A stretch of 64,000 nucleotides of DNA. It comes from a virus (taxonomy: Duplodnaviria > Caudoviricetes). Positions within the stretch are counted from its first letter, which is position 1; every line of letters begins with the position of its first letter. Location: the IMG/VR virus record IMGVR_UViG_3300014205_000002, positions 1 to 64,000 of that record. The stretch is one strand, 5' to 3'. Below are positions 5,650 through 52,735 of this stretch, one piece after another. The notes beneath the pieces are model-generated. The model had not been told where the DNA came from. It was given only the letters and a program-made list of their open reading frames with translations, and did no database searches. A program made the position numbers and the translations under genes.

Positions 5650-7107
5650 ATGAACGCGAAGGTACTGGGCGGTGCTGCGATCGGGGCGGTGGCTGGCGGG
5701 GCTTTTGGTTTAGGCCATGACCGAATGATCCCTGGCGCTCTGGCGGGCGCGGCGCTCGGGGCGATCGCTGGTGCGGGGGCGGCTAAGCTCCTGCGCAAGC
5801 CCCCGCCAAAGCGAACCTCCGCCTTCGTGCAGAATGCTGACAACGTTAGCGATGACCATGTCTTTGAAAATGGCGTGAGGGTCGATCGCGATGGACCCAC
5901 AGGGGATGCGACAGAACAAGGCACGCGAGTATTCAATCACCATGTACGTATCGGCAGAAAAGGCAGAGAGCTTCATAGGTCCAGTAATTCACGTATCGCC
6001 CACCATGGTGACGACATCTTTGTGAACGTTAGAAACCAGGAACTGGATGTCGTCGGGAGGGGCATGAGCACGAGTTACGCCACGACCATTCACGATGCGT
6101 TCCATTCCGACGACGTCGTGGACGACATAGTCAGCCACGCCGCTCAGCTCGGCCGCACCATCTCCCCTGAGCATCAAGACGAGATCCGCGGCGTGCTACG
6201 TCGGTTCGATCGAAAGAAGAAAGAGGCATCCATGCGTCCCTATGACCTATTTCTCAAGACACTGGAGGCTGAGGCATCCACCAAGTCGGCGCTAGGGCCC
6301 GACATAGCCGAGGCTGCCATGCACTTCGCTCGGGGCGTTGGTCACAACGCGAGCGGCATTGCTACCAAGGTCAAGAATTCTGTCGGTCGACATGTTGACG
6401 ACATCAAGGGTCGGATCGCCGAGTCGACAGCAGAGCGCATCGCAGGCCAAGCCGCCCCCCACATCCAGGGCCTAATCAGTCCCGAGGGCGTGGGGCGTAT
6501 GGTCGAGCAGCCGGGCGTGAAGAACCTGATCCGCGAGCATGTGGCCGAGGCGGCGGTCAGCCCGCTCGACCTGCTATTCGGCAAGCGCAAGACAGCCTCC
6601 GTTTCCGCTTGCGAGACGCGCTCCTACGACCTTTTCATGAGTCAGTTTGAGCTGAGCAAGAGCGCAAGCGCGCGCAACGCGGCGATCGACCGTCATGGCT
6701 TTGCGCCGACCGGTCCCGTGTTCGCGGCTAGGGAGCGCGCGCCCGTTGGCGAGAACGTCCGCGAGACCACGCAGGCATCGACGCCGATCTCGATGGCCCA
6801 GGCTACCAGGTACGACGAGAAGCAGGCGAACGCCTTACTCAAGGGCCTGGGTGGCGGCTTCTTGCTCGGAGCTGGCGGCGTGGCCGCGGCCGACAAGCTG
6901 AGCGACAACAAGCAGAAGGCCACCGCGGACATCCTGCGCTCGAAGGCCACCTACAACCGCAACCGTATTCGCTACCAGCAGACGTTCCAGAAGCTCGCGC
7001 CAGCGGCCCAGCGCGAGATCCTCAAGTCCTATGACGCCTATGCGGGCTCGGTCGCCCAGGGGGCCGAAGAGGGCCTCTACCCGGTGAGCGGGGCCTCGTT
7101 GTTCTGA
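5650..7107 (+). CDS. multi-module putative internal head protein
   Basis: Gly-zipper N-terminus; internal MRPYDLF and RSYDLF tags flanked by KEAS/KSA and KTAS/KSAS. Confidence 0.7.
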   Translation: MNAKVLGGAAIGAVAGGAFGLGHDRMIPGALAGAALGAIAGAGAAKLLRKPPPKRTSAFVQNADNVSDDHVFENGVRVDRDGPTGDATEQGTRVFNHHVRIGRKGRELHRSSNSRIAHHGDDIFVNVRNQELDVVGRGMSTSYATTIHDAFHSDDVVDDIVSHAAQLGRTISPEHQDEIRGVLRRFDRKKKEASMRPYDLFLKTLEAEASTKSALGPDIAEAAMHFARGVGHNASGIATKVKNSVGRHVDDIKGRIAESTAERIAGQAAPHIQGLISPEGVGRMVEQPGVKNLIREHVAEAAVSPLDLLFGKRKTASVSACETRSYDLFMSQFELSKSASARNAAIDRHGFAPTGPVFAARERAPVGENVRETTQASTPISMAQATRYDEKQANALLKGLGGGFLLGAGGVAAADKLSDNKQKATADILRSKATYNRNRIRYQQTFQKLAPAAQREILKSYDAYAGSVAQGAEEGLYPVSGASLF

Positions 7108-9305
7108 TGGATACCCGGCATGTCTTTGAGCGCTCGTTTGACGCGCTGATGCAGAACCCGCGCGCGAACGACTCCGCGATCCGTCGCCAGGTGCTGGGGG
7201 AGTTCGAGGACATCCCCCAGCCCGCTAAGCCGCCCGAGGGCAAGGCCGACTACCCCAAGGCGATCGGCCCTGATGAGGCGCTGCATCGCGTCATGGCGAG
7301 CAAGAACCATCAGCACAACCTTTCTGCGATGCCGCCCGCCGAGCGCAAACAGTGGATGGACATGTACGCCCACCGCTGGCTGGAAGGTCGGCACTTCACC
7401 CTGGTCGACCTGGCCCTGGAAAAGCTCGACCGCAAGGCCTTCGACCTCGACGAGCAGAAGGTCCAGAGCCTGGTCGACAAGCCGCCGAAGGACGACGGCA
7501 ACTTCCCGATCGTCAGCGGCTTTGATAAGAACGAGGGAGCCGAGCACGTCATCCTGGATGGCAACCACCGGGCCGAGGCGGCGATTCGCCGGGGAGACAA
7601 GACCATGCGCGCCTATGTTCGCGACGACCTGATCGAGGGCGGTGGCGCGTTTGCCGAGACCTGCGCCAAGGTCGCCTTCGACTTCCTCAAGGGCCTGGTG
7701 CCCGCCGCCAAAGCCCACATCAACTACATCGCCGCGACTGCTGGCGAGGCCCGCGCCCATGAGGTCGCGGACCTTGCGCACCACATCGTTGAGGGGCGCA
7801 AGAACCGCAAGGACAAGCGGGTTAAACTCAACGACGTCCTGGCCGTCCACCGCCAGGCCATGCTGAGCAAGAACGCCGCGCTCCTGCAAGCCGAGGACCT
7901 CGACGCCATGGCCGGCAAGGCTGACCTCCTGCGAGAGGTCGAGGCAATTCATGGGGGATGCGTGGCGGACCATGCCGCAGAGCTGGCGGGCGATGGCCCA
8001 GTCACGCGCGAGCATATCCAGACGGCCTGCTTCGCGAAAGCCGATGCGCCCAAGCCTGGCGAGAAGGGCTACTCGGACTACTTCTCCCGCGTCCTGAAAG
8101 AGAAGCTCGGCCAGAGCGAGAAGACAGCCGCGCTATTTGATCTGCCCGGCGTGGCTGAAGAACGCCAGCACCATGCTGACGACATTCGCCGCCATGCCGA
8201 AGCTTTAATCGCCTCTGATGCCAAATTCAAGGGGCACACGGCCGAGGTGGACGCAAACCCAGTGCGCATCCTCGGACTGTGGCACAGTCGCAAGCCGCGC
8301 TACTTTATTGACGTCAACATCAAGGATCCGGAGGGGAAGGCCATAACCGCCCCCGCTGGCGACGTCATTCAGCCAGGCCTTTCACTCACAATCGATCCCG
8401 ACAAGAGCTATCTGGATGGACTTAGCATTGCACCAGGGTTTCATGGGCGCGGCTATGGTGCGGCGTTGATGGGGATCTCCGAACGTCTGGCTTCCGATTC
8501 GGGCACCAAGCGCATCGGCGCGCATTCCGTCAACCCGATCTCCGCGCGCATGGCGCTCGGGGCTGGCTACCAGGTAGTAGGTCGACCAGAGGTGAAGGCA
8601 GAGCACATTCATATCGAGCGTGACAAGGGCCAAGAGTGGGACCTGGAGCGTCCAAACACCAGTCGCGGGCCGATTGGCCATGTGAGCGAAGGCCGCGAGA
8701 ATCCGTTCTCCTTGCTCACGCCCATCCGGAACCACTGGGGGCGCACGGCGGAAAAAGCGGCCGCAGACGACAGCGAGCGCCCCACCGTGTTCCTCGGCGG
8801 CAAGGTCTCTGGGCCTGACGGCAACTGGCGCAAGTCGATCGCCGACGGCATCCGCGACGCCGGCTGGGATGCCATCGACCCGAAGAAGAAGACCTGGACG
8901 CCCGAGAAGGACATCTACAAGGAGGTCGAGGGCATGCTCAATGCTGACCTGGTGGTATTCCATGAAGGCGGTACCTTCACGAAGCGTGAGAAAAAGCTCC
9001 TAGACGCTGTGGGCAAGCCCTACACCGAGGTCGATACCCCCGACGAGGTGCGCGAGCTCGTGGGCGACCCAGCGACCGCAGGCATGCTCGCCAAGGCCGC
9101 CTTCAATGCATCCTTGATCGTCGATCCGATCCGAAAGTTTACGCCCTCGGTATTCCCCCAAGACGCATTCGGTCACCCCATCACCAGCCTGCGCGCGGCC
9201 GCCGCCGGGGACAGCGCCATGCTGATCCTGCTGCGGCGCATCCGCGAGAACCCTGCCGACTTCCATGGCATCATCGCCCTGAACGCGATGCTCGCCGCCC
9301 GCTAA
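7107..9305 (+). CDS. polyvalent protein: ParB/Srx-like + GNAT acetyltransferase + nucleoside 2-deoxyribosyltransferase-like domains
   Basis: ILDGNHRAEAA (ParB-like); IAPGFHGRGYGAALM (GNAT motif A); VFLGG...WR...IDP...EVEGMLNADLVVF (NDT-like). Confidence 0.75.
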   Translation: MDTRHVFERSFDALMQNPRANDSAIRRQVLGEFEDIPQPAKPPEGKADYPKAIGPDEALHRVMASKNHQHNLSAMPPAERKQWMDMYAHRWLEGRHFTLVDLALEKLDRKAFDLDEQKVQSLVDKPPKDDGNFPIVSGFDKNEGAEHVILDGNHRAEAAIRRGDKTMRAYVRDDLIEGGGAFAETCAKVAFDFLKGLVPAAKAHINYIAATAGEARAHEVADLAHHIVEGRKNRKDKRVKLNDVLAVHRQAMLSKNAALLQAEDLDAMAGKADLLREVEAIHGGCVADHAAELAGDGPVTREHIQTACFAKADAPKPGEKGYSDYFSRVLKEKLGQSEKTAALFDLPGVAEERQHHADDIRRHAEALIASDAKFKGHTAEVDANPVRILGLWHSRKPRYFIDVNIKDPEGKAITAPAGDVIQPGLSLTIDPDKSYLDGLSIAPGFHGRGYGAALMGISERLASDSGTKRIGAHSVNPISARMALGAGYQVVGRPEVKAEHIHIERDKGQEWDLERPNTSRGPIGHVSEGRENPFSLLTPIRNHWGRTAEKAAADDSERPTVFLGGKVSGPDGNWRKSIADGIRDAGWDAIDPKKKTWTPEKDIYKEVEGMLNADLVVFHEGGTFTKREKKLLDAVGKPYTEVDTPDEVRELVGDPATAGMLAKAAFNASLIVDPIRKFTPSVFPQDAFGHPITSLRAAAAGDSAMLILLRRIRENPADFHGIIALNAMLAAR

Positions 9306-9315
9306 GGAGTAGCCC

Positions 9316-9888
9316 GTGAACCAGCACATCTCGCCCTACCGGGCCTTCTTGAACCACGCGATGGCCGGCCACAACATGGCCCCGCCGACGGTGCCGTTCG
9401 ACCACCAAGAGTCGGTCAGCAACCAGGACAGCACGGCGATCGCCAGGCTCCTGCCCGTCGTCGACGACGTCATCCTCGCGGGCGGGCGTATCGCCAAAGG
9501 ACTCGTGAAGATGAAGTTCGCCAAGGTCGACGAAGCGAGTGGGCTTCCAGAGGTGGTCGCGCACCCTTACCGGCATGCGCTGCCAAAAGAGCTGATCGGT
9601 GGTGCGGCTGCGACTCTCGTTGGCGCGACGCCTTTCGGTATGTGGGCGGGCCGGGCCATGGCCGCGCGCGATCACTCGCGTGCGATCCGTGGAATGGGCG
9701 ACAAGGCGAACGATCTGCCGACGAGCGTTCGCCACCCCTACGCCGTCCAGACCGCGCTCGACTTTGCGGTGACACCGTTGCTCTCAGGCCTCGCCGCATC
9801 CGTGATTCACCGCGGCGAGAAGCAGGACTATGTCGCCGATCAGCAGCGGCTGGAGAAGTCCAAGGCTGCCTACCAGCTGTACGCATAA
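9316..9888 (+). CDS. glycine-zipper protein, paralogue of 52738-53241
   Basis: AAGGAG RBS and GTG start; ISPYRAF tag-like segment; HPY...GGAAA...HSRAI...VRHPY. Confidence 0.65.
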   Translation: MNQHISPYRAFLNHAMAGHNMAPPTVPFDHQESVSNQDSTAIARLLPVVDDVILAGGRIAKGLVKMKFAKVDEASGLPEVVAHPYRHALPKELIGGAAATLVGATPFGMWAGRAMAARDHSRAIRGMGDKANDLPTSVRHPYAVQTALDFAVTPLLSGLAASVIHRGEKQDYVADQQRLEKSKAAYQLYA

Positions 9889-9897: not shown

Positions 9898-12800
9898 ATG
9901 CGCACACCCCAAGAAGTCCACGCGGCCGTCATCGAGCAGGTCAAGGAAGGCCTCAAGACCGCCTTCCCGATCGGCACGGTGAACCGCCAGCTCCACCTCG
10001 TGGATGTCCATGTCGACGAGCAGGCGTCACACGACGACTACGAGAGCCAGAAGATCGCAATCATGGGCAGCAAGACCTGGGGCGCGCCGATGTCAGCGAC
10101 CGTCGAGCTGCGCGACGCCGCGGGCCGGGCCATCGACCAGAAGAAGGTGCGCCTGGGCCTGCTGCCCACCGTGACCAACCGGCACACCTACATCGTCAAC
10201 GGCAAGGAGTACCAGGTCAGCCACCAGCAGCGGCTGCGCTCGGGCGTCTACACGAAGCTCAACCGCCTGGGTGAGCCCGTCGCCGACTTCAACCTCGCCA
10301 AGGGCCGCAACTTCTCGGTGGTGCTTGATCCGGCGTCGAGCCGCTTCGACCTCAAGTACGCGAACACCCACGTGCCGCTCTATCCCGTCGTCAAGCATGT
10401 CTTCGGCTACCCCAGTCTGGGGATGGGTGACGAGAGCTTCAATACGCCCATGAGCGAGGAGCAAGAGTTCACGGCGCTGCGCACGCTGCATGCGGAGGTG
10501 CTCGCGGGCAAGCCCGTGCCCGAGGAGAACGGCGCGCTGGTGAGCAGCCTCAAGGAGGCCTTCGGTAAGACCATGCTCGACAGCGCGATCACAGAGAAGA
10601 CGCTGGGCACGGGCCACACCATCGTAAACGGCGACGCCCTGATCGACGCCGCGCACCAGGTGCTGCGCATCCATCGCGGCGAGGTCGCGCCGACGACCAA
10701 GGAACAGATGGCCTACGCGGAGATCCATGGCGTCGAGGATCTCCTGCGCGAGCGCCTGGAGAAGAACCGCTTCGCGATCGCGGGCAAGGTCCGGCGCACG
10801 CTCGATCGCGCGCAGAAGGTCGGCGAGGTCAACCTCCAGTCGGCGGTCCAGCCTCTGCTGACGGGCTTCTTCACGCAGAGCGCGCTCTCCAGCAACCCCG
10901 TTCAGGTGAACCCGTTGGAGATGCGCGAAAACGCCTACAAGATCACCCGCCTTGGCGAGGGCGGCATCTCCGACACCAACGCCATTCCCACAGAGGTCCG
11001 AAACGTCCACCCGAGCCAGGCGGGATTCATCGACCCTGTGAGGACGCCCGACAACGCCCGGGCAGGCATCGACGTGCGCGCAGGCCTGGGCGTCACCAAG
11101 CGTGGCAAGCAGCTCGTCGCGACGGTCGTGGACGCGCGCACCGGCGACAAGGTGCAGCACACGCCCGTGGAGTTGTTCGACAAGGTCGTCGCCCATGACG
11201 CCGAGTCCGCCGAGGATGGTCGCATCCGGGCGATTCACCGCGGCAAGCTCGTGAGCGTGCGCCCCGACCAGGTGGACTTCCACATCCCCACCGAGCAGAT
11301 GTTCACGGTCTCGACCGCCATGGTGCCGTTCGTGCCGAACTCGCATGCGCACCGCGTCGCCATGGGCGCGAAGATGTTGGGCCAGGCGCTCTCGCTGACG
11401 GATCGCGAAGCCCCGATCGTCGACACCAATCACTCGGACGAGAGCCTCAAGGGCATCCTGCCGGTGGCTCCGGTTGCGGGCCTGGTCCGGGCGATCGCCC
11501 AGGGGCACCTGGTGATCGCCGGCGAAGACGGCAAAGACCACCGGGTCAACTTCCCCCACGAGTTCCCGCTCAACGGCGGCAGCTACCTGCACACCGATCT
11601 GCATGTGAAGGCGGGCGACCAGGTGACGGCGGGCCAGGTGCTCGGCGACAGCAACTTCTCGAAGGATGGCCGCATCGCGCTCGGCAAGAACCTGCACGTG
11701 GCCTACATCCCATACAAGGGTCTGAACTACGAGGACGGCCTGGTCTTGACCGAGTCTGGCGCGCGCAAGCTCACGAGCAACCACCTCCACACCGAGGAGT
11801 TGGAACTCGACGGGCGGACCATGCACGACATCGAGAAGTACCGCGCGCACTTCCCCGGCGCGCTCGGCCGCGACCAGGTGGCGAAGCTCGACGCCAAGGG
11901 CGTGGTTCGCGTCGGACAGACCCTGTCGGCGGGCGACCCGATCATGGCGGTACTGCGCCAGCGGCCGCAGAACCCTGAGCAGCTCGTGCTCGGCAAGGTC
12001 CATAAGTCGCTCGCGGAGCCCTACAAGGACGACTCAATCACCTGGGACAAGACCTACGACGGCCGGGTCACCGCGGTCCACCATGACGGATCCAACATCA
12101 AGGTCACCGTCGAGGCTCAGGCACCCGCCCAGGTCGGCGACAAGCTCTGTGGCCGTTATGGCAACAAGGGGGTTGTGACAGCAATCATCTCCGACGACCA
12201 CGCGCCCCACACCGCGGACGGCAAGGTGCCGGATCTGCTGATTAACCCGGCCGGCCTGATCTCGCGCATGAACAACGGCCAAATCTACGAGGTCGTGGTC
12301 GGTCGCGCGCTCCAGAAGCTTGGCATCCCCAGCCGGCGCTTCGATCAGTTCGGCAAGGGTGACACGCATGAGCAGGTCACGCGCCTGGTCGAAGCCGCGG
12401 GATCGGGTGACGGCGACGAGATGTTCGACCCCGACACCAAGCGATCGATCGGTCACGTCATGAACGGCCCGATGTATGTGCTCAAGCTGTTTAAGCAGGC
12501 CGAGAGCGGGTTCAGCGCGCGCGCCGGCGGCGAGTACGATCTGGATCTCAGGCCGGCCAAGGGCGGCACCGAGGGTGCGAAGTCGGTGGGCCACCTCGAC
12601 TTTTTCGGCCTGCTCGCGCACGGTTCCAAGAACCTGCTGCGGGAGGCGGCAACCTACAAGGCTGAGCGGAACCCCGAGGTGGTGGCCCAGATGTGGCGAG
12701 GGGCTCCTTTGCCTCCACCTAAGCCCACCTTCGCTTACCGCAAGTTCGAGGCGATGCTCAAGGGCATGGGCGTGAACGTCGCCAAGGACGGCTCCAAGAT

Positions 12801-15765
12801 GACGCTCCTGCCGATGACCGACAAGGATGTCCTGGCCGTTTCGTCTGGGGCCATCACCAAGCCGTTGATGGTAAACGCGAAGCCCGACCCTGTCACCAAC
12901 CTGCCATTCCGACCCGAGGAGGGCGGCATCTTCGACCCAGTCGCCACCGGCGGCCTGGTCGGCAATCGCTGGAGCCACATCCCTCTGGCCGAGGGCGTGG
13001 TCAACCCCATGTTCGCGAAGCCCGCGCGCACGATCCTCGGCCTGGGCAAACAGGAGTTCGAGGAGATGCTCGCCCGCGAGGGCGCGCATGGGATCGGCCA
13101 GCGCCTCGACGCGATCGACCCCGCCGCTCGGATCGGCGTGCTCCAGCGCGAGCTCGTGAACACCAATGCGGTCGCGCGCAGGGACACGATCCACAAGCAG
13201 ATCAAGTACCTGTCGGCCCTGGAGCGCAACGGCCTGCGACCGAAGGAAGCCTACATCCTGAACCATCTGCCGGTGATCCCGCCGTCGATGCGTCCAGTCT
13301 ACCCGGACGCCAACACGGGCGACCTCGTGACCTCCGATGCGAACCAGCTCTACCAGCACTTGCTGATGATCAACGAGCAGCTCGCGAAGCACACCGCCGA
13401 CGGCGATCCGGACATGGTGCGCGAGCTGCGCCAGGGCCTGCACGAGGCGGTCTCGCGCGTGCAAGGCCTGGACGCGACGACGGCGGCCGCCTCGGGCGAA
13501 CGTGAACCCCAGGGCTTCCTGCGGGTGATCGCCGGCGCGCGAGCGAAGGATGGCTTCTTCCAGAGCAAGCTGATCTCCCGCCGGCAGGACATCGCTGGCC
13601 GCGGCGTCGCCGTGCCGAGCCCCACGCTCGGGCTCGACCAGATCGGGCTGCCCGAGGACATGGCCTGGAAGCTCTACCGCAACCACGCGATGGGTGAACT
13701 CTCGCGCGCGGGCGTGCCGCTCAAGGATGCAGCCAAGGACGTCGCCGAGCGGACCGATCGCGCGAAGAAGGCCTTGGAGGCGTCGATGAATGCGAGCCCC
13801 GCGATCATGACGCGCGCACCCAGCCTGCATCGCTTCAACGTCCAGGCGTTCAAGCCGCAGCTGGTCGCGGGCAAGTCGATCGAGGTCAACACCCTGATCC
13901 ACAAGGGATTTAACCTTGACCACGATGGTGATTGCTGTCTGGGAACAGTGGTTATAGCGCGCAAATCGGCCGATTTTGAGTTGACAAATTCCACATTTAA
14001 TCGCACACTGAATTCGTCGCCCAAAATAATGGCCGGGGGTGTCGCGATGTTGCTCAAAGAATCTTATGTGCCGGTGGTGAGTGGCTACACGTACGAGGTT
14101 GTCGATCTCGCTGACTTCCCACGCCTGGAAGACACCAAACGCACTAAGGAGAACGGCAACTCGTTCTACGACGTGCCGGAGGGCATCCATGTGTTCGCCT
14201 ACGACCCCGCCGATGGCCGAATTAAGCTGTTCCCGGTAACGGAGTACAGCGTTCACCCCAACCTCCAAATGGTGAAGGTGACCACCCGTTCTGGTCGCAC
14301 GGTGGATTGTTCCGAGGATCACTCGCTCTATGGCATCGATCCCCGGACGCTCGTCGTTCAAAAAATGAAGCCGCCTGAGTCATTGGGCTGCCTGATTCCT
14401 CGCCCGCGCAAGGTGACGACGACTGAGTCCGTGAGCACGATCCCGATGGGCACGAAGCACAACGCGAACGAAGGTCACGCCGGTCGTTACGTGATCGCCG
14501 ATCACCTGGAGCTAGATCTTGAGTCTGGCTGGTTTATCGGCGCTATGGCGGGGGATGGATACGCTTCACGGGAGGGTGGCCGGCTTGGTTTCTGTAACGT
14601 CGCGCAGCCCACTTTCGATCGCATCAAGGAGTTCCTGCTCATTCGTGTCTGCGCTGGGTTGTCCTTCTCGGAGCATGACAACCCCCACGACTTCGACGGC
14701 CATGCATGTTTCAGTCGCAAATTGCACTGGACGAGCAAGTCGCTCAATGCCTTCGTGGCGGAGCAGATCGGCCAGGACTCCGAGAACAAGCACCTTCCGA
14801 CTTACTGGATCGCCTCACCCGAGTCATTCCGCTGGGGCCTATTGGCTGGCCTGCTCGATACGGACGGCCGCGTGATGAAGACCGTCGCCCAAGGTGGCCG
14901 GAAAATAAACTGGCACGTGGGCTACGACTCGAAGAGCGAGCAACTCATTGACGAGGTATTGATGCTCTGCTCGACGCTCGGCGTTCGCGCTACCAAACGC
15001 GCCTATAAGAACAAGAAGGGCCTAGCCTACTATCAGGCAGCCATGTCGGTGACGGACGTCCGCACGTACGCGAATAAGATCCTGCTTTCGACGCCCGCCA
15101 AGGCCGGGGCCCTCTTGGAGATGGTGGCTGCATCGCCGGAGAACCAGTCCACGCATGACACGATCCCGGTGCCGCGCGAGCTGGCCCTCGCGCTCAGGAA
15201 GACCTTCGGTGCTCCGCGGGATGCCGACGGTCGCCACAAGAGTCTCTACATCTTAATCGACAAGGCTACGAAGAAGGGCGGCATGAACCGCGACACAGCC
15301 AAGGAAGTCATCCGTCGCATCGGCGATGCTCGTGTGGGTGAGATGCCGCTCGGTGCGCGTTGGCTCACGATCGTCAACACCGACGAGACGCTCTGGGACG
15401 AGGTCGTCAAGATCGAAAAGAGCGAGTCCGGCGTGACCGCCTACGATATGACCGTTCCAGGCTCCTGGACTTTTATGCTCGCCAACGGCCTGGTTGTCCA
15501 GGATTGCGTAACCATCCATGTGCCCGTCACGCCCGAGGGCGCGAGCGACGCGTTCCAGATGTTGCCCTCGAACAACCTGTACGCGACCCTGAATGGCGCG
15601 CCCGTGCATGTGCCGACGCAGGAGACTATTATGGGTCTCTACAAGGTGACGAGCGTTGGCCACAAGCCTCCTGTCGCCAAGTTCGCTTCCCGCGCGGATG
15701 CGGTCGCCGCCTATCAGCGTGGCGAAGTGCGCGTCCACGACCCGATCGAGATCCTGGAGGGCTGA
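9898..15765 (+). CDS. rpoBC: DNA-directed RNA polymerase, beta subunit fused to the N-terminal half of beta', intein-containing
   Basis: beta motifs GDKLCGRYGNKG, NPAGLISRMNNGQ, GPMYVLKL; beta' motifs LPVIPPSMRP, TSDANQLY, RAPSLHR, catalytic NLDHDGD. Confidence 0.95.
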   Translation: MRTPQEVHAAVIEQVKEGLKTAFPIGTVNRQLHLVDVHVDEQASHDDYESQKIAIMGSKTWGAPMSATVELRDAAGRAIDQKKVRLGLLPTVTNRHTYIVNGKEYQVSHQQRLRSGVYTKLNRLGEPVADFNLAKGRNFSVVLDPASSRFDLKYANTHVPLYPVVKHVFGYPSLGMGDESFNTPMSEEQEFTALRTLHAEVLAGKPVPEENGALVSSLKEAFGKTMLDSAITEKTLGTGHTIVNGDALIDAAHQVLRIHRGEVAPTTKEQMAYAEIHGVEDLLRERLEKNRFAIAGKVRRTLDRAQKVGEVNLQSAVQPLLTGFFTQSALSSNPVQVNPLEMRENAYKITRLGEGGISDTNAIPTEVRNVHPSQAGFIDPVRTPDNARAGIDVRAGLGVTKRGKQLVATVVDARTGDKVQHTPVELFDKVVAHDAESAEDGRIRAIHRGKLVSVRPDQVDFHIPTEQMFTVSTAMVPFVPNSHAHRVAMGAKMLGQALSLTDREAPIVDTNHSDESLKGILPVAPVAGLVRAIAQGHLVIAGEDGKDHRVNFPHEFPLNGGSYLHTDLHVKAGDQVTAGQVLGDSNFSKDGRIALGKNLHVAYIPYKGLNYEDGLVLTESGARKLTSNHLHTEELELDGRTMHDIEKYRAHFPGALGRDQVAKLDAKGVVRVGQTLSAGDPIMAVLRQRPQNPEQLVLGKVHKSLAEPYKDDSITWDKTYDGRVTAVHHDGSNIKVTVEAQAPAQVGDKLCGRYGNKGVVTAIISDDHAPHTADGKVPDLLINPAGLISRMNNGQIYEVVVGRALQKLGIPSRRFDQFGKGDTHEQVTRLVEAAGSGDGDEMFDPDTKRSIGHVMNGPMYVLKLFKQAESGFSARAGGEYDLDLRPAKGGTEGAKSVGHLDFFGLLAHGSKNLLREAATYKAERNPEVVAQMWRGAPLPPPKPTFAYRKFEAMLKGMGVNVAKDGSKMTLLPMTDKDVLAVSSGAITKPLMVNAKPDPVTNLPFRPEEGGIFDPVATGGLVGNRWSHIPLAEGVVNPMFAKPARTILGLGKQEFEEMLAREGAHGIGQRLDAIDPAARIGVLQRELVNTNAVARRDTIHKQIKYLSALERNGLRPKEAYILNHLPVIPPSMRPVYPDANTGDLVTSDANQLYQHLLMINEQLAKHTADGDPDMVRELRQGLHEAVSRVQGLDATTAAASGEREPQGFLRVIAGARAKDGFFQSKLISRRQDIAGRGVAVPSPTLGLDQIGLPEDMAWKLYRNHAMGELSRAGVPLKDAAKDVAERTDRAKKALEASMNASPAIMTRAPSLHRFNVQAFKPQLVAGKSIEVNTLIHKGFNLDHDGDCCLGTVVIARKSADFELTNSTFNRTLNSSPKIMAGGVAMLLKESYVPVVSGYTYEVVDLADFPRLEDTKRTKENGNSFYDVPEGIHVFAYDPADGRIKLFPVTEYSVHPNLQMVKVTTRSGRTVDCSEDHSLYGIDPRTLVVQKMKPPESLGCLIPRPRKVTTTESVSTIPMGTKHNANEGHAGRYVIADHLELDLESGWFIGAMAGDGYASREGGRLGFCNVAQPTFDRIKEFLLIRVCAGLSFSEHDNPHDFDGHACFSRKLHWTSKSLNAFVAEQIGQDSENKHLPTYWIASPESFRWGLLAGLLDTDGRVMKTVAQGGRKINWHVGYDSKSEQLIDEVLMLCSTLGVRATKRAYKNKKGLAYYQAAMSVTDVRTYANKILLSTPAKAGALLEMVAASPENQSTHDTIPVPRELALALRKTFGAPRDADGRHKSLYILIDKATKKGGMNRDTAKEVIRRIGDARVGEMPLGARWLTIVNTDETLWDEVVKIEKSESGVTAYDMTVPGSWTFMLANGLVVQDCVTIHVPVTPEGASDAFQMLPSNNLYATLNGAPVHVPTQETIMGLYKVTSVGHKPPVAKFASRADAVAAYQRGEVRVHDPIEILEG
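13933..15504 (+). mobile_element. intein (524 aa) with LAGLIDADG homing endonuclease
   Basis: Starts with Cys after DHDGD; block B CSEDH; GAMAGDG and LAGLLDTDG; block F/G YDMTV...LANGLVVQD then Cys; removal gives DHDGD-CVTIHVP, matching cellular DFDGD-QMAVHVP. Confidence 0.9.
13981..14009 (+). promoter_or_regulatory. possible sigma70-type promoter inside the intein
   Basis: TTGACA-17 nt-CACACT in an AT-rich insert, upstream of GGGGGTG and in-frame ATG 14047. Confidence 0.35.
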
Positions 15766-16033: not shown

Positions 16034-16780
16034 ATGCGTCCCTACGACCTGTTCATCAAGGAAGCCGCGGGCGGCATGGTGCCCTTCGACGGGGTCTTCG
16101 CCTTCCAGCAGCTGCGCAAGATGCGCGAGGGTGTCGGCGCGGCGCGGGGCATTCACCAGGGTCGCGTGCTGCGCGCGGGCGGCGTTGGTGCGGTCGTCGG
16201 CGGCGTCGGAGCAGCGGGCGCGGGTGCTGTCCACGATCACCACCAGGGCCAGGAGGTCACGCTTGGTCAGACCGCCTTGCGGGCCGCCGAGGGCGCGTTC
16301 ATCGGTGGCGCAGCCGGCGCGGGCGGCAAGGCCGTGCTCGATCTCGGGCGTCAGGGGGCTGCGGCGGGCGCGCGAATGGCGGCGGACGCCGTGGAGGCAA
16401 CCAAACGAACAGCCAGACCCCACAGCTACGTGATGCCCACGGGGCACGCTATCGAAGTCGTGAAGGTGGATACCGATGCCGCCCATCAGGCGTTCCACAA
16501 CATCCGGACGAACCCCGACATCGCGGCGATCGGCGACTTCGAGGGCCGGTACGGGCGCAAGGCGATGGCCCAGACGCTCCACCCCGACCACCTGGCGCAC
16601 GCAGGCATCGACGAGGCCGACCAGACGCGCATCAACCGCGCCTACCAGCTCTACAACGGCATAGGCGGAAACGCTGGCTCCTCGCTCAGCAAGGAGGTCG
16701 AAAGCAGGTTCGATGCGGCCTCTGGGGCGGCCCGCCTGTTTGCGGTGAAGATGGACCAGGCCCAAGAAGGCCTGTTCTAG
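16034..16780 (+). CDS. glycine-zipper putative internal head protein
   Basis: GAGGAG RBS; starts MRPYDLFIKEAA; G/A-rich hairpin. Confidence 0.7.
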   Translation: MRPYDLFIKEAAGGMVPFDGVFAFQQLRKMREGVGAARGIHQGRVLRAGGVGAVVGGVGAAGAGAVHDHHQGQEVTLGQTALRAAEGAFIGGAAGAGGKAVLDLGRQGAAAGARMAADAVEATKRTARPHSYVMPTGHAIEVVKVDTDAAHQAFHNIRTNPDIAAIGDFEGRYGRKAMAQTLHPDHLAHAGIDEADQTRINRAYQLYNGIGGNAGSSLSKEVESRFDAASGAARLFAVKMDQAQEGLF

Positions 16781-16781
16781 G

Positions 16782-18350
16782 ATGCGGGCCTGCGATCTGT
16801 TCTACGAGTTGTCGAAAGCCGGCGCTCTCAAAGAAGACTTCAAGCTGCGGCCGCACCAGCAAGTGGCGATCGACAAGCTGCTCGCCAACAAGGGCTCGCT
16901 ACTGATCGCCCATGGGCCGGGCACGGGTAAGACACCGACGAGCTCCGCGGCGATCGAGGTGATGCGCGAGAAGGGCATGGCCGGCAAGGCACTGATCGTC
17001 ACGCCCGCGAACTTGCGCGATAACTTCCTCGACGGCGGCATCCACAAGTTTACGACCAGCAAGGGCATCCGGCTTGGCCCCAAGGGCGAGGCCGGCTCGC
17101 ACCACATCGACCAGGCGACGATTCCGGACGCCGACAGCTATGTGGTTTCGGTCGAGATGTTCCGCAAGGATCCGCACAAGTACCTCGATCGCACTGGGGC
17201 CGACACCATCGTCTGGGACGAGGTCCACAAGCTGCGCGACACCGGCTCCAGTAACTACGCTGCGGCGATGGCGGTCCGCTCGCGCGTGAAGAACTTCGTG
17301 GGCCTCACGGGCACGCCAGTCATGAATCACCCGCGCGACATCGTACCGATCCTCGACGTGATCACCAACAAGAGCCATGGCCTTTCCGGAAAGGGCTCCG
17401 ATACCTTCGACAAGCGCTACATCGGCAGCGAGGTCAAGCGCGTCGGCCCGCTCGCCATGTTCGGCATCGGCCGCAAGGAAAAGCACACAGTCTTCCATCG
17501 CCAGCACGAACTCAAGGCGCTGCTCGGCAATGTCGTCCATCACGTCTCGACCGAGGATGTAGCTGCGGACATGCCCAAGAAGAAGGTTGTCGACGTCGAC
17601 GTGGAAATGAGCAAGCCTCAGCACAAGCTCTACAACTTCGCGATGCAGAAGGTCGATCCGATCACGCGCTGGAAGATCCGAAACAACTTACCAGTCAACA
17701 CGCGCGAAGCACAGCACGTCTTTTCGATGATCACCCAGGCCAGGCAGGCATCAAACTCCCTGCATGTGCTCGACAGCACCTACGACGCAGCGCGCTCGGC
17801 CGAGGACACCCCCAAGAGCCGGCGCGTGCTCGACGATGTCCATGAGCACCTGGGCAAGAACCCCACGCACAAGGCGATCGTCTACACCAACATGGTGCGA
17901 GGTGGCGTCGACCAGATGGTCGCCGGCCTCAAGTCGCGTGGGCACGATCCCGGTGTATTCATCGGCGCTCAGCAGATCAGCAAGAAGGAGCGCGCCCAGC
18001 ACGTCGAGGACTACCTCGCCGGCCGCAAGCGCGTGATGGTGATCAACACGGCGGGCACCGAGGGACTAAACCTGCCGGGGACGACGCTGCATGCGACCCT
18101 CGACGGCCATTTCAACCCTGCGGTGATGGAGCAAGCCGAGGCCCGTGGGATCCGTGCGGGCTCGCCGGTCAAGGAGGTCGAGGTTCGGCGCTACCGCAGC
18201 CTCGTACCGAAACCATTCGGTGTGCCCTTCCTGCCTCGCGAGACCTCGACCGATCAGTGGATCCACGGTATCGCCGACCGCAAGGAAACGCTCAACAAGA
18301 AGTTCATGGGGCTCATGAAGTCGGCGGCGCTATCCGGTGTCCGCCAGTAG
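16782..18350 (+). CDS. SNF2-family helicase/ATPase
   Basis: LRPHQ, HGPGTGKT, DEVH, LTGTPVMN, AGTEGLNL, FNPAVMEQAEARGIR. Confidence 0.9.
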   Translation: MRACDLFYELSKAGALKEDFKLRPHQQVAIDKLLANKGSLLIAHGPGTGKTPTSSAAIEVMREKGMAGKALIVTPANLRDNFLDGGIHKFTTSKGIRLGPKGEAGSHHIDQATIPDADSYVVSVEMFRKDPHKYLDRTGADTIVWDEVHKLRDTGSSNYAAAMAVRSRVKNFVGLTGTPVMNHPRDIVPILDVITNKSHGLSGKGSDTFDKRYIGSEVKRVGPLAMFGIGRKEKHTVFHRQHELKALLGNVVHHVSTEDVAADMPKKKVVDVDVEMSKPQHKLYNFAMQKVDPITRWKIRNNLPVNTREAQHVFSMITQARQASNSLHVLDSTYDAARSAEDTPKSRRVLDDVHEHLGKNPTHKAIVYTNMVRGGVDQMVAGLKSRGHDPGVFIGAQQISKKERAQHVEDYLAGRKRVMVINTAGTEGLNLPGTTLHATLDGHFNPAVMEQAEARGIRAGSPVKEVEVRRYRSLVPKPFGVPFLPRETSTDQWIHGIADRKETLNKKFMGLMKSAALSGVRQ

Positions 18351-19816: not shown

Positions 19817-20068
19817 ATGGCGACCAAGTGTTACGCATACATCCTGGAAGGCATGACCGAGGCCGACCGAATCAGGCTTCACGAGATGATTCTCGCGGAG
19901 AAGCTGATCGCGAAGGCCGCGAGTCTCCAGACGTCCCGCGACAGCACTGGCCGCATGGTCCATAAGATGGAGGTGGTCGTCGACACAAAGACCACGCTCC
20001 AGTACATCGTGGACACCTTCTACACGGCCACGGATCGGGCGCTCGCGCCGGTGGAGTACCGCGGATGA
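19817..20068 (+). CDS. hypothetical protein
   Basis: GGAG RBS; ATGA coupling to the beta' C-terminal gene. Confidence 0.55.
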   Translation: MATKCYAYILEGMTEADRIRLHEMILAEKLIAKAASLQTSRDSTGRMVHKMEVVVDTKTTLQYIVDTFYTATDRALAPVEYRG

Positions 20069-40067: not shown

Positions 40068-40628
40068 CTAGTCCTCCAGGGACGCGAGGTAGAGGGCGGC
40101 GGCGTACTTGAGCCGGGGTTGGCCCGGCGGCAGATCGGGCGTGGGTGATTCCGGCGGCAGCGGCGAGGGCGCGGCTTTGGGCGCGACCATGTCGACGACG
40201 CTCTTGATGCCGAGGGCATTCCCGCCGATCACCAGCGCCCGCTGAGGGGTGATCACGCTGGGGCGCTTCGTGTTCACGCCGAGCACGCTCAGGGGCAGCT
40301 TCGCGAGCCCCGGCAGCTTTGACGCATCCATCGGGATCCCCAGGCCCGAGCCGAAGTCCTTGTCGAGAAAGCGCTCGACGGCACCCTCGCCCTTCGCGCC
40401 ACTCAGCGAGACCTTGCGGCCCGCATTGTAGATGCGCTGGGACATCTGTGAACGCAGGCCGTTTCCGTTGAAGCGGCTACCGGTCCGTCCCAGGCCGAGT
40501 CCGACGGCGCGACCCAGCATCTTGATTCCACCGCCGACGATACCGGCGAGGCCCGGCGCGCCGGCGATGCCTGCGGCAATCTGGGCGACCCCCCCCAGCA
40601 GCGCAGCTTTTTCCAGATTCTCGTTCAT
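40068..40628 (-). CDS. glycine-zipper putative internal head protein
   Basis: MNENLEKAA at the N-terminus and LKYAAA at the C-terminus; G/A-rich helices. Confidence 0.65.
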   Translation of the reverse strand: MNENLEKAALLGGVAQIAAGIAGAPGLAGIVGGGIKMLGRAVGLGLGRTGSRFNGNGLRSQMSQRIYNAGRKVSLSGAKGEGAVERFLDKDFGSGLGIPMDASKLPGLAKLPLSVLGVNTKRPSVITPQRALVIGGNALGIKSVVDMVAPKAAPSPLPPESPTPDLPPGQPRLKYAAALYLASLED

Positions 40629-48669: not shown

Positions 48670-49152
48670 ATGTCCGCATTTGATCTGTTCATGACGATCC
48701 AGAATAAGAAGGCGAACGAAGCCGTCGGTGCCGGCTCCGTCGGCAACGGTCCCCAGAACATGGGGATGCAGGATTCTGACCCAGCCACCGCAACCAACAG
48801 CGCCCTCTCGGCCCAGCGCGCCGCAGCCTCGGCCGCACCGGTCGGCGTCGGCCTGGAGCCGGACGGCGGCATGGGCACAAACAAGTCTATCCCAACGGCG
48901 ATGCCTGGCCAGAACCTGTTCCAGGCCGTCGAGCAGGCTGCCGCCACCGGCAAGGTCGCCACGATCGTCGAGTACGCCAAGGGGTTCGCCGAACAGTGCA
49001 TGAATGTCAACATGCAGAACTACGCGAACACCAAGTCGGCATCGAGCGCCGAGCAAAACGCCTGGTTCGACAAGCTGGCTTCGAGCACGATCGAGGACGG
49101 CTACGAGATGGGCCGTCGTTTCGCGCTCCAGCGCCTGGCCGGCAAGGCGTAG
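48670..49152 (+). CDS. putative prohead core/internal protein
   Basis: AGGAGG RBS; MSAFDLF tag; KKA, KVA, KSAS, KLAS. Confidence 0.7.
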   Translation: MSAFDLFMTIQNKKANEAVGAGSVGNGPQNMGMQDSDPATATNSALSAQRAAASAAPVGVGLEPDGGMGTNKSIPTAMPGQNLFQAVEQAAATGKVATIVEYAKGFAEQCMNVNMQNYANTKSASSAEQNAWFDKLASSTIEDGYEMGRRFALQRLAGKA

Positions 49153-49860: not shown

Positions 49861-49866
49861 GCCGCC

Positions 49867-51252
49867 GTGGGCGAGTGGCAGGAAAAGATCATCCCATCGG
49901 GTGATCGCACATTCTTGAACGAGGGCGAGCAGCGCGTGACGCCGCTCGTGTCTTGCCACGGCCGCCTTGAGATCGACGATCGACGCGGGCGCACCAAGGT
50001 CGCCGCCGCCGAAGAGGCGCTTGAAGCCGCCGCCAAGATCACGCCGGTGGCCGGCCGCGTCTACATCCTAAACGTGGCGCTGGGCTCGTTTGAGTTCTGG
50101 GGCGACAACAACAACGGCGACGCCTTCCCCGAAGCCGGCCTCCTGGGCCTGCCACCGGCGGACGTGCCGATGTCGTTCTTCGACCGCCTCGCCGCACGCA
50201 TGAAGGGTAAGGACTGGGGGCACAAGACCTTCCTGAACGGCCACACCTTTGAGGAGCACCGGAACACCGATCCGTCACTCGCGATCGGCGGCATCGCAGG
50301 CACCTACTGGAACGATCGCATGCACCGCTGCGAGAACATCCTCTGGATCGACCGCAAGAAGGGTGCGAAGTGGGCCACCCGTATCGACGCCGGCGAGCCG
50401 GTCGGCACCTCAATGGCCTGCAAGATCCCCTTTGATCGCTGTTCGCGGTGCGGCAACCTCGCGGTCACCCGCGTGAGCTACTGCCAGCACCTCAAGCCGG
50501 GCATCAACTCCCAGAACCGTCACATCCTCGCGGACGGCCTGCGCGTGTGCATGATGAACGACTTCCCCTGGTTCTTCGACGACTCGATGGTCGAGAACCC
50601 CGCTGCCCCAGAGGCCCTGACGCTCATGAAGATCGCGAGTGCGCCCGCCGTCCCCGCCAAACGCGCCGAACTGACCAAGGACACGCCGGACCTCCCCAGC
50701 GACGTGATGGCCGACGAGGAGGCCCTGGCCCTCTATGACGCCGAACAGCGGCTGCCGATCGAAGCCCTCGCAAAGCTCGCGGGCCTCGGCCTGCCGTCGA
50801 TCCTGGAGGCCAGTGAACGACTAGGCATGGCGCTGCGCCCGAGTGAAGTCTTCGCCCTGCACTTCGGCCTCAAGTACGCCAGCGACGACACCATTGACCT
50901 CGATCGGCTCGCGGTGCGCCGCCCGGTTCGATACGATGACGTCGATCTCTCTGCGCTCAAGTCCGCAGGCCAGCCACTTGCCCCCAGCTGGGACTTTCGC
51001 AAGGTCGCGCGGGCCCAGGCGCTGCTGGCCCCCTTCGCGCCCAGCCGCTCCTATCTACCCGAGCACCTGGTCGGCCGGCTTGTCCGGCTCGCGAAGTCTG
51101 CCGCCAGACTTTCTCCGCCGATCATGAGCGAGCGCGCCGACAGCCAGCTCGCGATCTACCACGCGCTTTGCAAGCTCGCATCGGGTCGCGTCGGCGTCGC
51201 CAGGCCGAATGCGGCCGCGATCACGCGCCTGCTCGCCGAGGGGCCAGCATGA
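49867..51252 (+). CDS. putative prohead maturation protease with Zn finger
   Basis: NNNGDAF, EEH, TSMAC...CSRC...YCQH, DDSMVENPA; located upstream of the capsid genes. Confidence 0.7.
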   Translation: MGEWQEKIIPSGDRTFLNEGEQRVTPLVSCHGRLEIDDRRGRTKVAAAEEALEAAAKITPVAGRVYILNVALGSFEFWGDNNNGDAFPEAGLLGLPPADVPMSFFDRLAARMKGKDWGHKTFLNGHTFEEHRNTDPSLAIGGIAGTYWNDRMHRCENILWIDRKKGAKWATRIDAGEPVGTSMACKIPFDRCSRCGNLAVTRVSYCQHLKPGINSQNRHILADGLRVCMMNDFPWFFDDSMVENPAAPEALTLMKIASAPAVPAKRAELTKDTPDLPSDVMADEEALALYDAEQRLPIEALAKLAGLGLPSILEASERLGMALRPSEVFALHFGLKYASDDTIDLDRLAVRRPVRYDDVDLSALKSAGQPLAPSWDFRKVARAQALLAPFAPSRSYLPEHLVGRLVRLAKSAARLSPPIMSERADSQLAIYHALCKLASGRVGVARPNAAAITRLLAEGPA

Positions 51253-51551
51253 GCCGGCCCTACGACGCCTTCATGGCGCACATGAAGCGCGCCGCCGACG
51301 AGGAGGCCAGCCTGGCCGCCTACTTCCAGCGCAGCAAGGGCGAGCTGGCGCACAACGCCACCAGCAATGTTCTCTACGGACTCCTTAGCAACCCCCGCGG
51401 GGGCGGCCCGGTGTCCGTGATGGGGGCCAGCGCAGGGGGCGTCATCGACGGCCTGCTGTTCAAGCCCATGGTGGACGCCACCGCCCACGCGATCGGCAAG
51501 GGCCTGGCCCTGGTCGACCGCAACCGATCCCCGAAGCCAGACGCCCTATAA
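51249..51551 (+). CDS. small tagged putative internal head protein
   Basis: ATGA coupling; MSRPYDAFMAHMKRAA. Confidence 0.65.
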   Translation: MSRPYDAFMAHMKRAADEEASLAAYFQRSKGELAHNATSNVLYGLLSNPRGGGPVSVMGASAGGVIDGLLFKPMVDATAHAIGKGLALVDRNRSPKPDAL

Positions 51552-51553
51552 TA
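51547..51553 (+). promoter_or_regulatory. TATAATA phage promoter
   Basis: CCCTATAATACC, overlapping the upstream TAA. Confidence 0.75.
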
Positions 51554-51577
51554 CCTTCAAGGGAGGACACGACCGCC

Positions 51578-52063
51578 ATGACGACCCTCAATATCGAATC
51601 GCTGATCAATCAGATCACCACGAAGCGCGCCAGCGAGGATTCCGCCGCCGCCCCTGCGGCCCCTGCGCCCGCAGATACCAGCACCCCCCAGAAGCAGGCC
51701 TCGGTTGACCTCGGCACGCCCGAAGGTCTCAAAGCCAGCATCGACGCACTGTCGCCCGAGGTGAAGGCGGCCTGCATGGTCGAAGCGCTCACCATGCTCC
51801 AGGCCGACGACGCCCGCCTGGGCCTCGCCACCGCTGTCGGCGAGAAGTCCGCTGGTCAGACGGTCGACTTCCAGACGCTGACTGCCGAGGAGAAGGCATC
51901 GTTCGAGAATGCGTTCAACGACCACAGCGCCAAGCTTGCGTCGGAGAACCCAGACTACGCCCTGTTCCTGAATATCGAAGCCGTCAAGATGGCTTTCGAT
52001 CAGGGCGCAGAAGACGCCGAGCAGGAGGTCCTCAAGCGGGCCTCCGAGAAGACCGGCCAGTAG
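51578..52063 (+). CDS. putative scaffold/core protein
   Basis: GGAGG RBS; acidic; 7 of 10 Lys are in K-x-A. Confidence 0.7.
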   Translation: MTTLNIESLINQITTKRASEDSAAAPAAPAPADTSTPQKQASVDLGTPEGLKASIDALSPEVKAACMVEALTMLQADDARLGLATAVGEKSAGQTVDFQTLTAEEKASFENAFNDHSAKLASENPDYALFLNIEAVKMAFDQGAEDAEQEVLKRASEKTGQ

Positions 52064-52086
52064 GCCGGGCGCGAAGGAGAACCCCT

Positions 52087-52431
52087 ATGTCCGCTTTCGA
52101 TCAGTTTTTCAATGGCATCACCGCTGCGCCCGCAACGCCCGCCGTCAAACAGGCCGCCGAGACCCAGGTCAAAGTAGCCTTCGACTCGCCGGCGGAAGAG
52201 GCCTTCTGGGAGGGCCTCGCCAGTGGCGACAAGCAGGCGGCCCGCTCCGGCGACGACACCATCGCCGCCAAGGACCTGTTTGAGGACATCTTCGACCTCC
52301 ACACGACCAAGTTGGCGTCAACCAACCCCGAGTACGCCCATGTCCTGCGCGTCCTGGCCGTGAAAGAGGCCTTCGAGGCCGGGCACGACGAGACGATAGC
52401 CTCGGCTCAGGCCGTCGGCATCGTCCAGTAG
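52087..52431 (+). CDS. putative scaffold/core protein, paralogue of 51578-52063
   Basis: AAGGAG RBS; MSAFDQF tag; 5 of 6 Lys are in K-x-A. Confidence 0.7.
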   Translation: MSAFDQFFNGITAAPATPAVKQAAETQVKVAFDSPAEEAFWEGLASGDKQAARSGDDTIAAKDLFEDIFDLHTTKLASTNPEYAHVLRVLAVKEAFEAGHDETIASAQAVGIVQ

Positions 52432-52441
52432 GGGCGCGCCG

Positions 52442-52735
52442 ATGAAAACCTGGCAGACCGATGTCGACGACCTGCGAAAGCAGGCGTCTGACAAGATGCG
52501 GGAAGCCGCAGACATACTCGCGGTCGCCAGCCAGGAGAAGGCAGCGAGCCAGGACGAGTCCGATCGGGCGATCATCGACAAGAAGCTCGCCTCGATCTAC
52601 ACGAACCTGCTCTATGCGGATCTGGCGAAGACGGCAACCGAGGCCATCAAGTCGGCCAGGCAGATCCCCGCTGCCGCCCCCGGCATGGCCCATGCGGGCC
52701 TGGTCGCCCAGGCTCTACTCTTGAGGGCCGTCTAA
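52442..52735 (+). CDS. putative core protein
   Basis: MKTWQ start; 5 of 8 Lys are in K-x-A. Confidence 0.65.
   Translation: MKTWQTDVDDLRKQASDKMREAADILAVASQEKAASQDESDRAIIDKKLASIYTNLLYADLAKTATEAIKSARQIPAAAPGMAHAGLVAQALLLRAV

Follow-up and report, generated by a model that had tools for sequence, protein, structure and literature searches.

A conserved N-terminal tag followed by K-x-A on unrelated proteins of an uncultured Arash-related phage, and its possible role as a T4-type capsid-targeting propeptide

Introduction

How phages load injected enzymes such as RNA polymerases and anti-defence proteins into their heads is known in molecular detail for T4 only and, in part, for P1; for giant phages no consensus loading signal has been found so far. 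Here, we describe a short peptide tag that starts otherwise unrelated proteins in the first 64 kb (referred to as the window) of the 208,264-bp virus record IMGVR_UViG_3300014205_000002 (64% GC) and that is typically followed by the tripeptide K-x-A. An earlier reading of the same letters (the original prediction) had proposed that the tag is a portable capsid-targeting sequence (CTS) for diverse cargo. The phage is known only from metagenomes, and the analysis was made on sequences and predicted structures.

Gene content of the window and copies of the tag

The window contains an RNA polymerase region (4-22 kb), which also encodes several glycine-rich proteins of no assigned family, and a head region (45-56 kb) with the large terminase, a protease (49867-51252), the major capsid protein (54832-55785) and small uncharacterised genes in between. 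The nearest named phage is the orphan Salmonella phage Arash, with a polymerase 34-35% identical to that of the window; Arash homologues were also found for the helicase, the protease, the capsid protein and the portal. About eight related metagenomic phages (53-69% GC) were gathered via helicase, capsid, polymerase and protease. At the protein level they show 30-60% identity to the window, and one of them, G002 (203.7 kb), provides a second complete genome.

In the window the tag has the form M-(x)-[RS]-[PA]-[YFC]-D-x-F-h (h, hydrophobic). It starts five genes, and two further copies lie inside the open reading frame (ORF) 5650-7107:

16034-16069, plus strand: tag and K-x-A (MRPYDLFIKEAA), start of a 248-aa glycine-zipper-like protein (gene 16034-16780)
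16782-16826, plus strand: tag (MRACDLFYELSKAGA; strong match at 16782, MRACDLFYELSKAG), start of an SNF2 helicase (gene 16782-18350, Pfam PF00176)
48670-48714, plus strand: tag MSAFDLFM and K-x-A (MSAFDLFMTIQNKKA), start of a 160-aa head-module protein (gene 48670-49152)
51249-51293, plus strand: tag and K-x-A (MSRPYDAFMAHMKRA; strong match at 51249, MSRPYDAFMAHMKRAA), start of a 100-aa protein (gene 51249-51551)
52087-52155, plus strand: tag MSAFDQFF with VKQA as the first K-x-A, start of a core-like 114-aa protein rich in K-x-A (gene 52087-52431)
6232-6291, plus strand: internal or alternative-start tag MRPYDLFL (MRPYDLFLKTLEAEASTKSA) inside ORF 5650-7107
6616-6666, plus strand: second internal tag RSYDLFM (TRSYDLFMSQFELSKSA) of ORF 5650-7107, with K-T-A-S upstream and K-S-A-S downstream

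All seven strong matches listed by the original prediction were recovered at the positions given there, on the plus strand and in coding frames. Each N-terminal copy has either a Shine-Dalgarno-like site upstream or start/stop coupling to the preceding gene, and the start of gene 51249 overlaps the stop codon of the protease (ATGA). In the 248-aa and the 100-aa protein the only K-x-A is the one directly after the tag, and in the 52087 protein five of the six lysines belong to a K-x-A. Orthologues of the helicase begin MRPYELFLAKTA and MYMTPYQCYLAKMGA, those of the 160-aa protein MTTPYDLYVDLLSKQA, MTTPFDVWMDSMNKQA and similar. The claim that the tag sits on otherwise unrelated proteins held as well: once the first 22 residues were removed, no similarity among the tagged proteins was detected. 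As to paralogy, one exception was found in that the 52087 protein is a paralogue of the untagged 51578 protein. Searches of Pfam and PHROGs returned no family for any tagged protein but the helicase, the 248-aa protein included, nor for the portal-side proteins, and the 248-aa protein had no match in IMG/VR.

The internal tag at 6232 is preceded by K-E-A-S and by a ribosome-binding-like AAGAGG, and both internal tags are flanked by K-x-A-S sites. Such bracketing is the pattern expected if once-separate tagged genes had fused into a polyprotein.

Conservation, N-terminal placement and distribution of the tag

At syntenic N-termini of the relatives the consensus reads [TRS]-P-[YF]-[DE]-x-[YF]-[MQL], with the first aromatic as residue 4 or 5; examples are MTTPYEAFQ, MLTPYDAYM, MTTPWDAYQ, MRPYELFL, MRPYDVFL, MTTPFDVWM, MTPYELYM, MRPYEAYW and MSAYEAYL. 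A profile was built on 34 N-termini that fit a permissive tag pattern, two of which are probable false positives. The first aromatic (Y in 23, F in 8) is preceded by P (27) or A (7) and followed by D or E and then by a small or aliphatic residue; the second aromatic (Y in 22, F in 11) is followed by M, Q or L. In 28 of the 34 tags the first aromatic occupies residue 4 or 5. The tag stays at the extreme N-terminus even when the domains behind it change. In the window it directly precedes the helicase, and in G002, where the helicase has gained an N-terminal Nudix region, it stands ahead of the Nudix-helicase fusion. The Arash helicase gp217 has no tag and aligns with the window helicase only from residue 19 on, so that the tag of the helicase is an N-terminal extension.

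To scan the proteome of the window's own genome with a motif model, as the original prediction had suggested, a matrix derived from the relatives' tags only was run over 63,129 positions of 269 predicted proteins. Seven of the 12 best matches fell into the first 8 residues, which make up 3.4% of the positions. Among these 12 are the copies at 51249 (the top match, 20.2 bits), 6232 (the second best of the genome), 16034, 48670 and 6619 as well as a degenerate one at 9316. The strict core [PA][YFW][DE].[YFW] occurs within the first 10 residues of six proteins, against 0.43 expected from the internal rate (P 6e-6). In G002 the same core is found in five proteins against 0.38 expected (P 5e-5), and in all five it is followed by K-x-A. 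Hence, the tag is real, N-terminal and far beyond chance.

The K-x-A that the original prediction had seen after the tag was borne out by counting: it starts in residues 8-30 of 27 of the 31 tagged proteins compared with 81 of 453 untagged ones (18%), and its lysine mostly lies 4-6 residues past the second aromatic.

The motif is short, and the 52087 protein has a paralogue, so that a resemblance without function might be thought of, arising by chance or by shared ancestry, for example from N-terminal exons copied in a recent duplication. The N-terminal enrichment in each of two genomes (P about 1e-5 to 1e-6), the retention of the tag across relatives with only 30-55% identity and the differing synonymous codons of the copies leave this explanation hardly credible, and we consider it refuted in effect. 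The codon differences between the copies point to selection on the peptide. An element acting at the nucleotide level, for instance a translation-initiation region common to the copies, was also considered and rejected, since the copies use different synonymous codons and the peptide persists from 53% to 69% GC.

Tags are not spread generally over the genomes, which bears on the original prediction's concern that the motif might be as common in non-structural proteins. In both complete genomes clear copies are confined to the head module, the RNA polymerase/helicase module and one small-protein family, the latter in G002. Accordingly, the five strict-core proteins of G002 belong to the polymerase module, the head module and this one further family, whose orthologue in the window (40068-40628) carries no tag.

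Several tagged genes flank the RNA polymerase genes, and the tag might then be a linear motif for a hub unrelated to the capsid (phage RNA polymerase or sigma factor, sliding clamp, or a host factor), with K-x-A being incidental. The h-x-x-aromatic-aromatic spacing indeed resembles clamp-binding (PIP-like) boxes. However, the tag lacks the glutamine at the first position of such boxes (QL[SD]LF or PIP-like); it occurs equally on small proteins between the protease and the capsid gene, and most carriers are small head-module proteins rather than replication or repair clients of a clamp. Strict placement at residue 4-5 and a coupled K-x-A would also be unexpected for motifs of this kind, and we regard a role at such a hub as improbable.

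K-x-A sites, the head protease and core-like proteins

Genome-wide, 12.8% of the lysines fall in K-x-A. By enrichment in this motif, the top seven among the 269 proteins are the protease (11 of 20 lysines), its neighbours 47399, 48670, 51578, 52087 and 52442, and one 386-aa protein near the portal.

49867-51252, plus strand: head maturation protease (phrog_18299, E 3e-4; AF2 model; structural matches)
54832-55785, plus strand: major capsid protein (phrog_2522; homology to Arash gp226; alignment)

The AlphaFold model of the protease (mean pLDDT 73) comprises a beta-rich domain (about residues 46-258), a disordered linker and a helical C-terminal domain. In VIA-align, the model matched T4 gp21 (5jbl_B) with Z 9.2 and rmsd 3.1 over 129 aligned residues, and the proteases of VZV and PRV with Z 8.3; a Foldseek search had nothing but herpesvirus proteases and T4 gp21 in its top rows, though at weak E-values (0.07-0.3). 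As modelled, the catalytic domain thus has the assemblin fold. PDB sequences searched with a profile of the protease family gave no match. Across 19 homologues H126, H131, S182 and H208 are invariant and are candidates for the Ser-His-His residues. From the structural alignments, the PHROG match and the invariant His/Ser/His we conclude that the protein is probably an assemblin-type head protease.

The linker of the protease carries two invariant sites, K255-x-A257 and K265-x-A267, which read I-M-K-[VI]-A-S and K-x-A-E-[IL] and persist even in a homologue that is 25% identical. Herpesvirus assemblins cleave after the Ala of [VLI]-x-A-S, including the release site that ends the catalytic domain, and the I-M-K-V-A-S site has the same position and form as this release site. 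In pUL26, the protease-scaffold protein of herpesviruses, the assemblin domain ends in a cleavage site with P1 Ala, and a linker and a scaffold part come after it. The protein of the window is laid out likewise: its catalytic domain ends in I-M-K-[VI]-A-S, and a linker leads to a helical C-terminal part that resembles a scaffold. It differs from pUL26 in that P3 is Lys instead of the Val/Leu/Ile of herpesviruses. Herpesviruses are not known to have N-terminal cargo tags. In this pUL26-like layout (assemblin domain, release-site-like I-M-K-I-A-S, disordered linker) the helical domain of about 180 residues contains eight further K-x-A sites, and one T-K-V-A-A site lies in the disordered N-terminus.

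The strongest K-x-A enrichment of the genome was found in the 386-aa protein (G000 73025-74185, minus strand, outside the window; L020:5026-6186), which is encoded two genes away from the portal. Of its 20 lysines, 14 belong to a K-x-A (P 5e-9), and it matched no Pfam or PHROG family. It is a candidate for the major scaffold or core protein. Capsid proteins conserve one K-x-A about 35 residues from the N-terminus, and several head proteins of Arash have a K-x-A near theirs; candidate cleavage sites in Arash are V-K-E-A|G in the capsid protein, T-K-Q-A|A in gp222 and T-K-Q-A|S in gp223. The small acidic head-module proteins (window 51578-52063 and 52087-52431; L005:7131-8197) form a paralogous family whose members share a C-terminal domain and vary at the N-terminus, where some have the PY tag and others a conserved helix of another kind (x-x-F-I-x-x-L-I-x-E-L) with K-x-A after it.

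The K-x-A pattern also bears on an explanation in which the tag is a helix for core assembly or protease recruitment, that is, a propeptide by which small core proteins and some enzymes co-assemble or dock on the protease, required for ordered maturation or for keeping enzymes inactive, and not a portable address able to load any protein. The tagged 48670 and 52087 proteins are K-x-A-enriched and core-like, the tag is coupled to K-x-A (27/31), and the long helical C-terminal domain of the protease could itself serve as a scaffold. Most K-x-A sites, however, such as the 14 in the 386-aa protein, have no tag before them, so that protease recognition does not require the tag, and the helicase and the large enzymes that carry the tag are unlikely building blocks of a core. 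We consider this explanation unlikely, but it is the alternative to which we give real weight.

Comparison with known targeting systems and proposed function

Mullaney and Black (1996) reportedly dealt with the CTS of the T4 proteins IPI, IPII, IPIII and Alt. In the T4 record, IPII and IPIII start with MKTYQEFIAE and IPI with MKTFKEFTST, so that the aromatics are residues 4 and 7, as in the tag; the spacing noted by the original prediction is therefore right. The T4 CTS is a cleaved, portable peptide that brings proteins into the scaffolding core (PMC8442874, PMC3012670, PMC5694885), and T4 internal proteins are cut once, next to the CTS (PMC8442874). As is characteristic of the T4 CTS, a short N-terminal peptide is common to otherwise unrelated proteins of one phage. 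Both are peptides of about 10 residues at the extreme N-terminus, in T4 on head-internal proteins, with Met-1, aromatics at 4 and 7, an acidic residue between these, a hydrophobic residue after them and a protease site, here the predicted K-x-A, a few residues on. The gp21/assemblin protease fold and core-like proteins saturated with the cleavage motif, as predicted here, are further points of likeness. The copy at 16034, MRPYDLFIKE, agrees with MKTYQEFIAE in 5 of 10 residues, a length too short for a homology test. The two systems differ in the tag itself, [TRS]-P-[YF]-[DE]-x-[YF]-h compared with K-T-[YF]-x-E-F in T4, and in the cleavage code, predicted to be K-x-A here and [LI]-x-E in T4. 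Unlike in T4, a helicase and large multi-domain enzymes are among the carriers, and the phage has a multisubunit RNA polymerase of the virion type; its capsid protein, of HK97 type, is small (317 aa), and targeting and cleavage are predicted from sequence.

Two other systems invite comparison. phiKZ/SPN3US-like phages are jumbo phages too, with a multisubunit RNA polymerase and numerous ejection proteins packaged in the particle; in these a gp21-like protease removes N-terminal propeptides thought to target the prohead, and the first 15 residues of the paralogues gp53 and gp54 are identical (PMC5694885, PMC10052503). Most of their propeptides exceed 100 residues; they lack a shared consensus and are cleaved at [SAG]-x-E, in contrast to the short tag and K-x-A found here, and we saw no sequence relationship to phiKZ-like phages. 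In P1, a signal in the first 30 residues of DarB directs this large anti-restriction protein of the helicase/methyltransferase type, or a reporter, into the capsid, and for the Dar proteins no N-terminal consensus and no coupled cleavage site are known (PMC9024508). The window helicase weakly matches DarB-like PHROGs.

We favour the reading that the tag together with K-x-A is a cleavable N-terminal T4-type capsid-targeting propeptide, likely recruiting proteins into the prohead core, and we hold it to be evenly poised between right and wrong. Head loading as originally proposed is thus retained in part. In its favour, a conserved, strictly N-terminal peptide with K-x-A is found on unrelated proteins, in modules with products expected inside the head; the accompanying statements on cargo and lineage need correction. 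Of the tagged proteins, those of 48670 and 52087 are K-x-A-saturated and core-like rather than cargo. As to the lineage, it does resemble T4 in one relevant point, the gp21/assemblin fold of its head protease. Protease fold and tag form link the orphan lineage of Arash and its relatives to T4-type head assembly. On the best reading, an uncultured lineage related to Arash has a T4-type CTS in which both the consensus and the cleavage code are new.

A head-internal location of the carriers is suggested by gene position, by K-x-A enrichment and by mass spectrometry of the Arash homologue of the helicase. In Arash particles, polymerase subunits, helicase and sigma factor were detected, with the polymerase giving the most spectra and gp206 being the most abundant protein by virion mass spectrometry; the study listed 116 virion proteins, hence some carry-over is possible (PMC10585845). 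The Arash polymerase, helicase and sigma genes lie within the head gene block.

In the mechanism that we propose, the tag, probably a short amphipathic helix with its two aromatics exposed, would bind a component of the scaffold, core or inner shell during prohead formation. Carriers would be of two kinds: core-like small head-module proteins, and cargo delivered with the DNA, namely the SNF2 helicase and the glycine-zipper proteins and, in relatives, the Nudix-helicase fusion and a large polyvalent protein. The assemblin-type protease would then cut at K-x-A; one cut would free cargo of its tag and K-x-A-saturated core proteins would be chopped up, paralleling the cutting of core proteins by T4 gp21 at [LI]-x-E. 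Binding of the tag to a prohead component, the cut at K-x-A and the packaging of tagged proteins are all predictions from the sequence pattern. A complex prediction with the capsid protein, the protease and the tagged 100-aa protein scored 0.00 and carries no weight either way.

The amphipathic N-terminal helix could instead serve as an ejection or membrane signal for tail exit or insertion into the host membrane, an idea that draws on the glycine-zipper-like, membrane-type segments seen in a number of tagged proteins and in proteins next to them. A cut at K-x-A during head maturation would, however, remove the tag before ejection, and neither the helicase nor the core-like proteins are membrane proteins; there is little to recommend such a function.

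Several observations weigh against the capsid-targeting propeptide that we favour. Among the Arash N-termini examined there was no PY-type tag, and the distant relative L016 has at most a degenerate tag on one protein (MRDAESFLIKQA). Both RNA polymerase subunits and the sigma factor lack a clear tag, though they are the best-documented virion enzymes of Arash; therefore the tag cannot be the sole route into the head. The helicases of the window and of G001 carry K-x-G-A and not K-x-A, and the 186-aa protein encoded at 40068-40628 has lost the tag of its orthologues while keeping L-E-K-A-A. Finally, since two tagged proteins are themselves K-x-A-saturated and core-like, the tag could function in core assembly instead of addressing cargo to the head.

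Beyond a targeting propeptide, the tag would be a true portable capsid address label with an origin common to that of the T4 CTS, a tentative proposal that we would expect to fail somewhat sooner than to hold. If true, the pairing of an N-terminal aromatic-4/aromatic-7 helix with an assemblin site would be ancient and common to T4-like phages and the Arash-related jumbo lineage; an early-infection kit of helicase, Nudix and polyvalent enzymes and membrane-active ejection proteins would be loaded into the head; and tag plus K-x-A would be a readable rule by which proteins delivered with the DNA could be predicted and engineered. A consensus signal with a simple cleavage code would allow the packaged proteome of an uncultured clade to be predicted from sequence, flag which uncharacterised proteins act first in infection and provide a second natural means of packing foreign proteins into capsids.

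Looser matches and rejected candidates

Three looser matches had been put forward along with the strong ones, of which one is plausible and two are not tags:

9316-9363, plus strand: degenerate tag ISPYRAFL (MNQHISPYRAFL, without K-x-A), start of a 190-aa protein just upstream of the RNA polymerase gene
7128-7148, plus strand: RSFDALM look-alike, no tag
52442-52456, plus strand: MKTWQ, a look-alike of the T4 CTS start, no tag

The copy at 9316 scores 13.0 bits with the relatives-only matrix. It is plausible by position alone, as the syntenic gene of G002 begins MLTPYDAYM (MLTPYDAYMDQVKSAA); no sequence homology was detected between the two proteins. RSFDALM was rejected, as it aligns to an internal segment (about residue 500) of a 793-aa protein of G002 and has no K-x-A after it. 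This G002 protein carries the tag at its far N-terminus, and its C-terminal part aligns with the N-terminal approximately 170 and the C-terminal approximately 70 residues of the 732-aa protein of the window (7107-9305), which combines a ParB/Srx-like N-terminal region, a GNAT acetyltransferase and a nucleoside 2-deoxyribosyltransferase-like domain. Orthologues of the protein starting with MKTWQ begin MSKWLSERD, MSFAPRDERL and MIGQDPVRER, keeping neither the sequence nor the aromatic pair.

Other candidates were discarded as well. MPYDETGYDLYL at 41796 was dropped since the RNase H-like orthologue lacks the second aromatic. The tag-like starts of the polymerase (MRTPQE...) and the sigma factor (MAIALWQAW) were not counted, being conserved parts of these proteins with no K-x-A after them. 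Near the portal, a 392-aa protein (G000 77782-78960, minus strand, outside the window; L020:9783-10961) begins MSEKPPVNPYEAF; its NPYEAF, which may be a decayed tag, was not accepted as a tag because it is just loosely kept in four relatives. The loosely similar N-termini in relatives read PRNAFEHS, PRNPYQVH and KTAYDDH, and no K-x-A follows.

Neighbouring genes and further observations

4937-5647: sigma-like factor
9898-15765, plus strand: fusion of RNA polymerase beta and N-terminal beta' (Pfam Rpb2 and Rpb1 domains), without a clear tag
20065-21915: C-terminal part of RNA polymerase beta'

Megablast of 4-19 kb against named phages gave no match. A metagenome scan with the capsid alignment returned three loci only, one of them a duplicate, and the ESM Atlas yielded weak leads only, a glycine zipper and a P22 gp16-like cluster at 0.75. 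Long Gly/Ala-rich, glycine-zipper-like segments, as in membrane-active ejection proteins, were seen in 4058-4933, 5650-7107, 9316-9888 and 16034-16780, and for the last of these the Atlas structure search gave a weak glycine-zipper match.

In L016, whose protease is 25-34% identical, a 626-aa protein encoded upstream of beta'-C (L016:88-1968) begins MRDAESFLIKQALQKRAF, a possible degenerate tag with two K-x-A. The glycine-rich 186-aa protein of the window (40068-40628, minus strand) begins MNENLEKAAL, and its orthologues in five relatives start with a tag (MTTPYEAYE..., MRPHEFYM..., MNPYESYT..., MSAYEAYL...) that is followed by L-E-K-[EAS]-A.

The polymerase fusion has 1955 aa and is 34-35% identical to Arash gp206. 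It contains a LAGLIDADG intein of about 520 residues (window 13939-15502) directly after the catalytic N-L-D-H-D-G-D. The polymerase orthologues of G002 and G003 (1431 and 1429 aa) are without the intein, and in L015 an intein is present in the large terminase instead.

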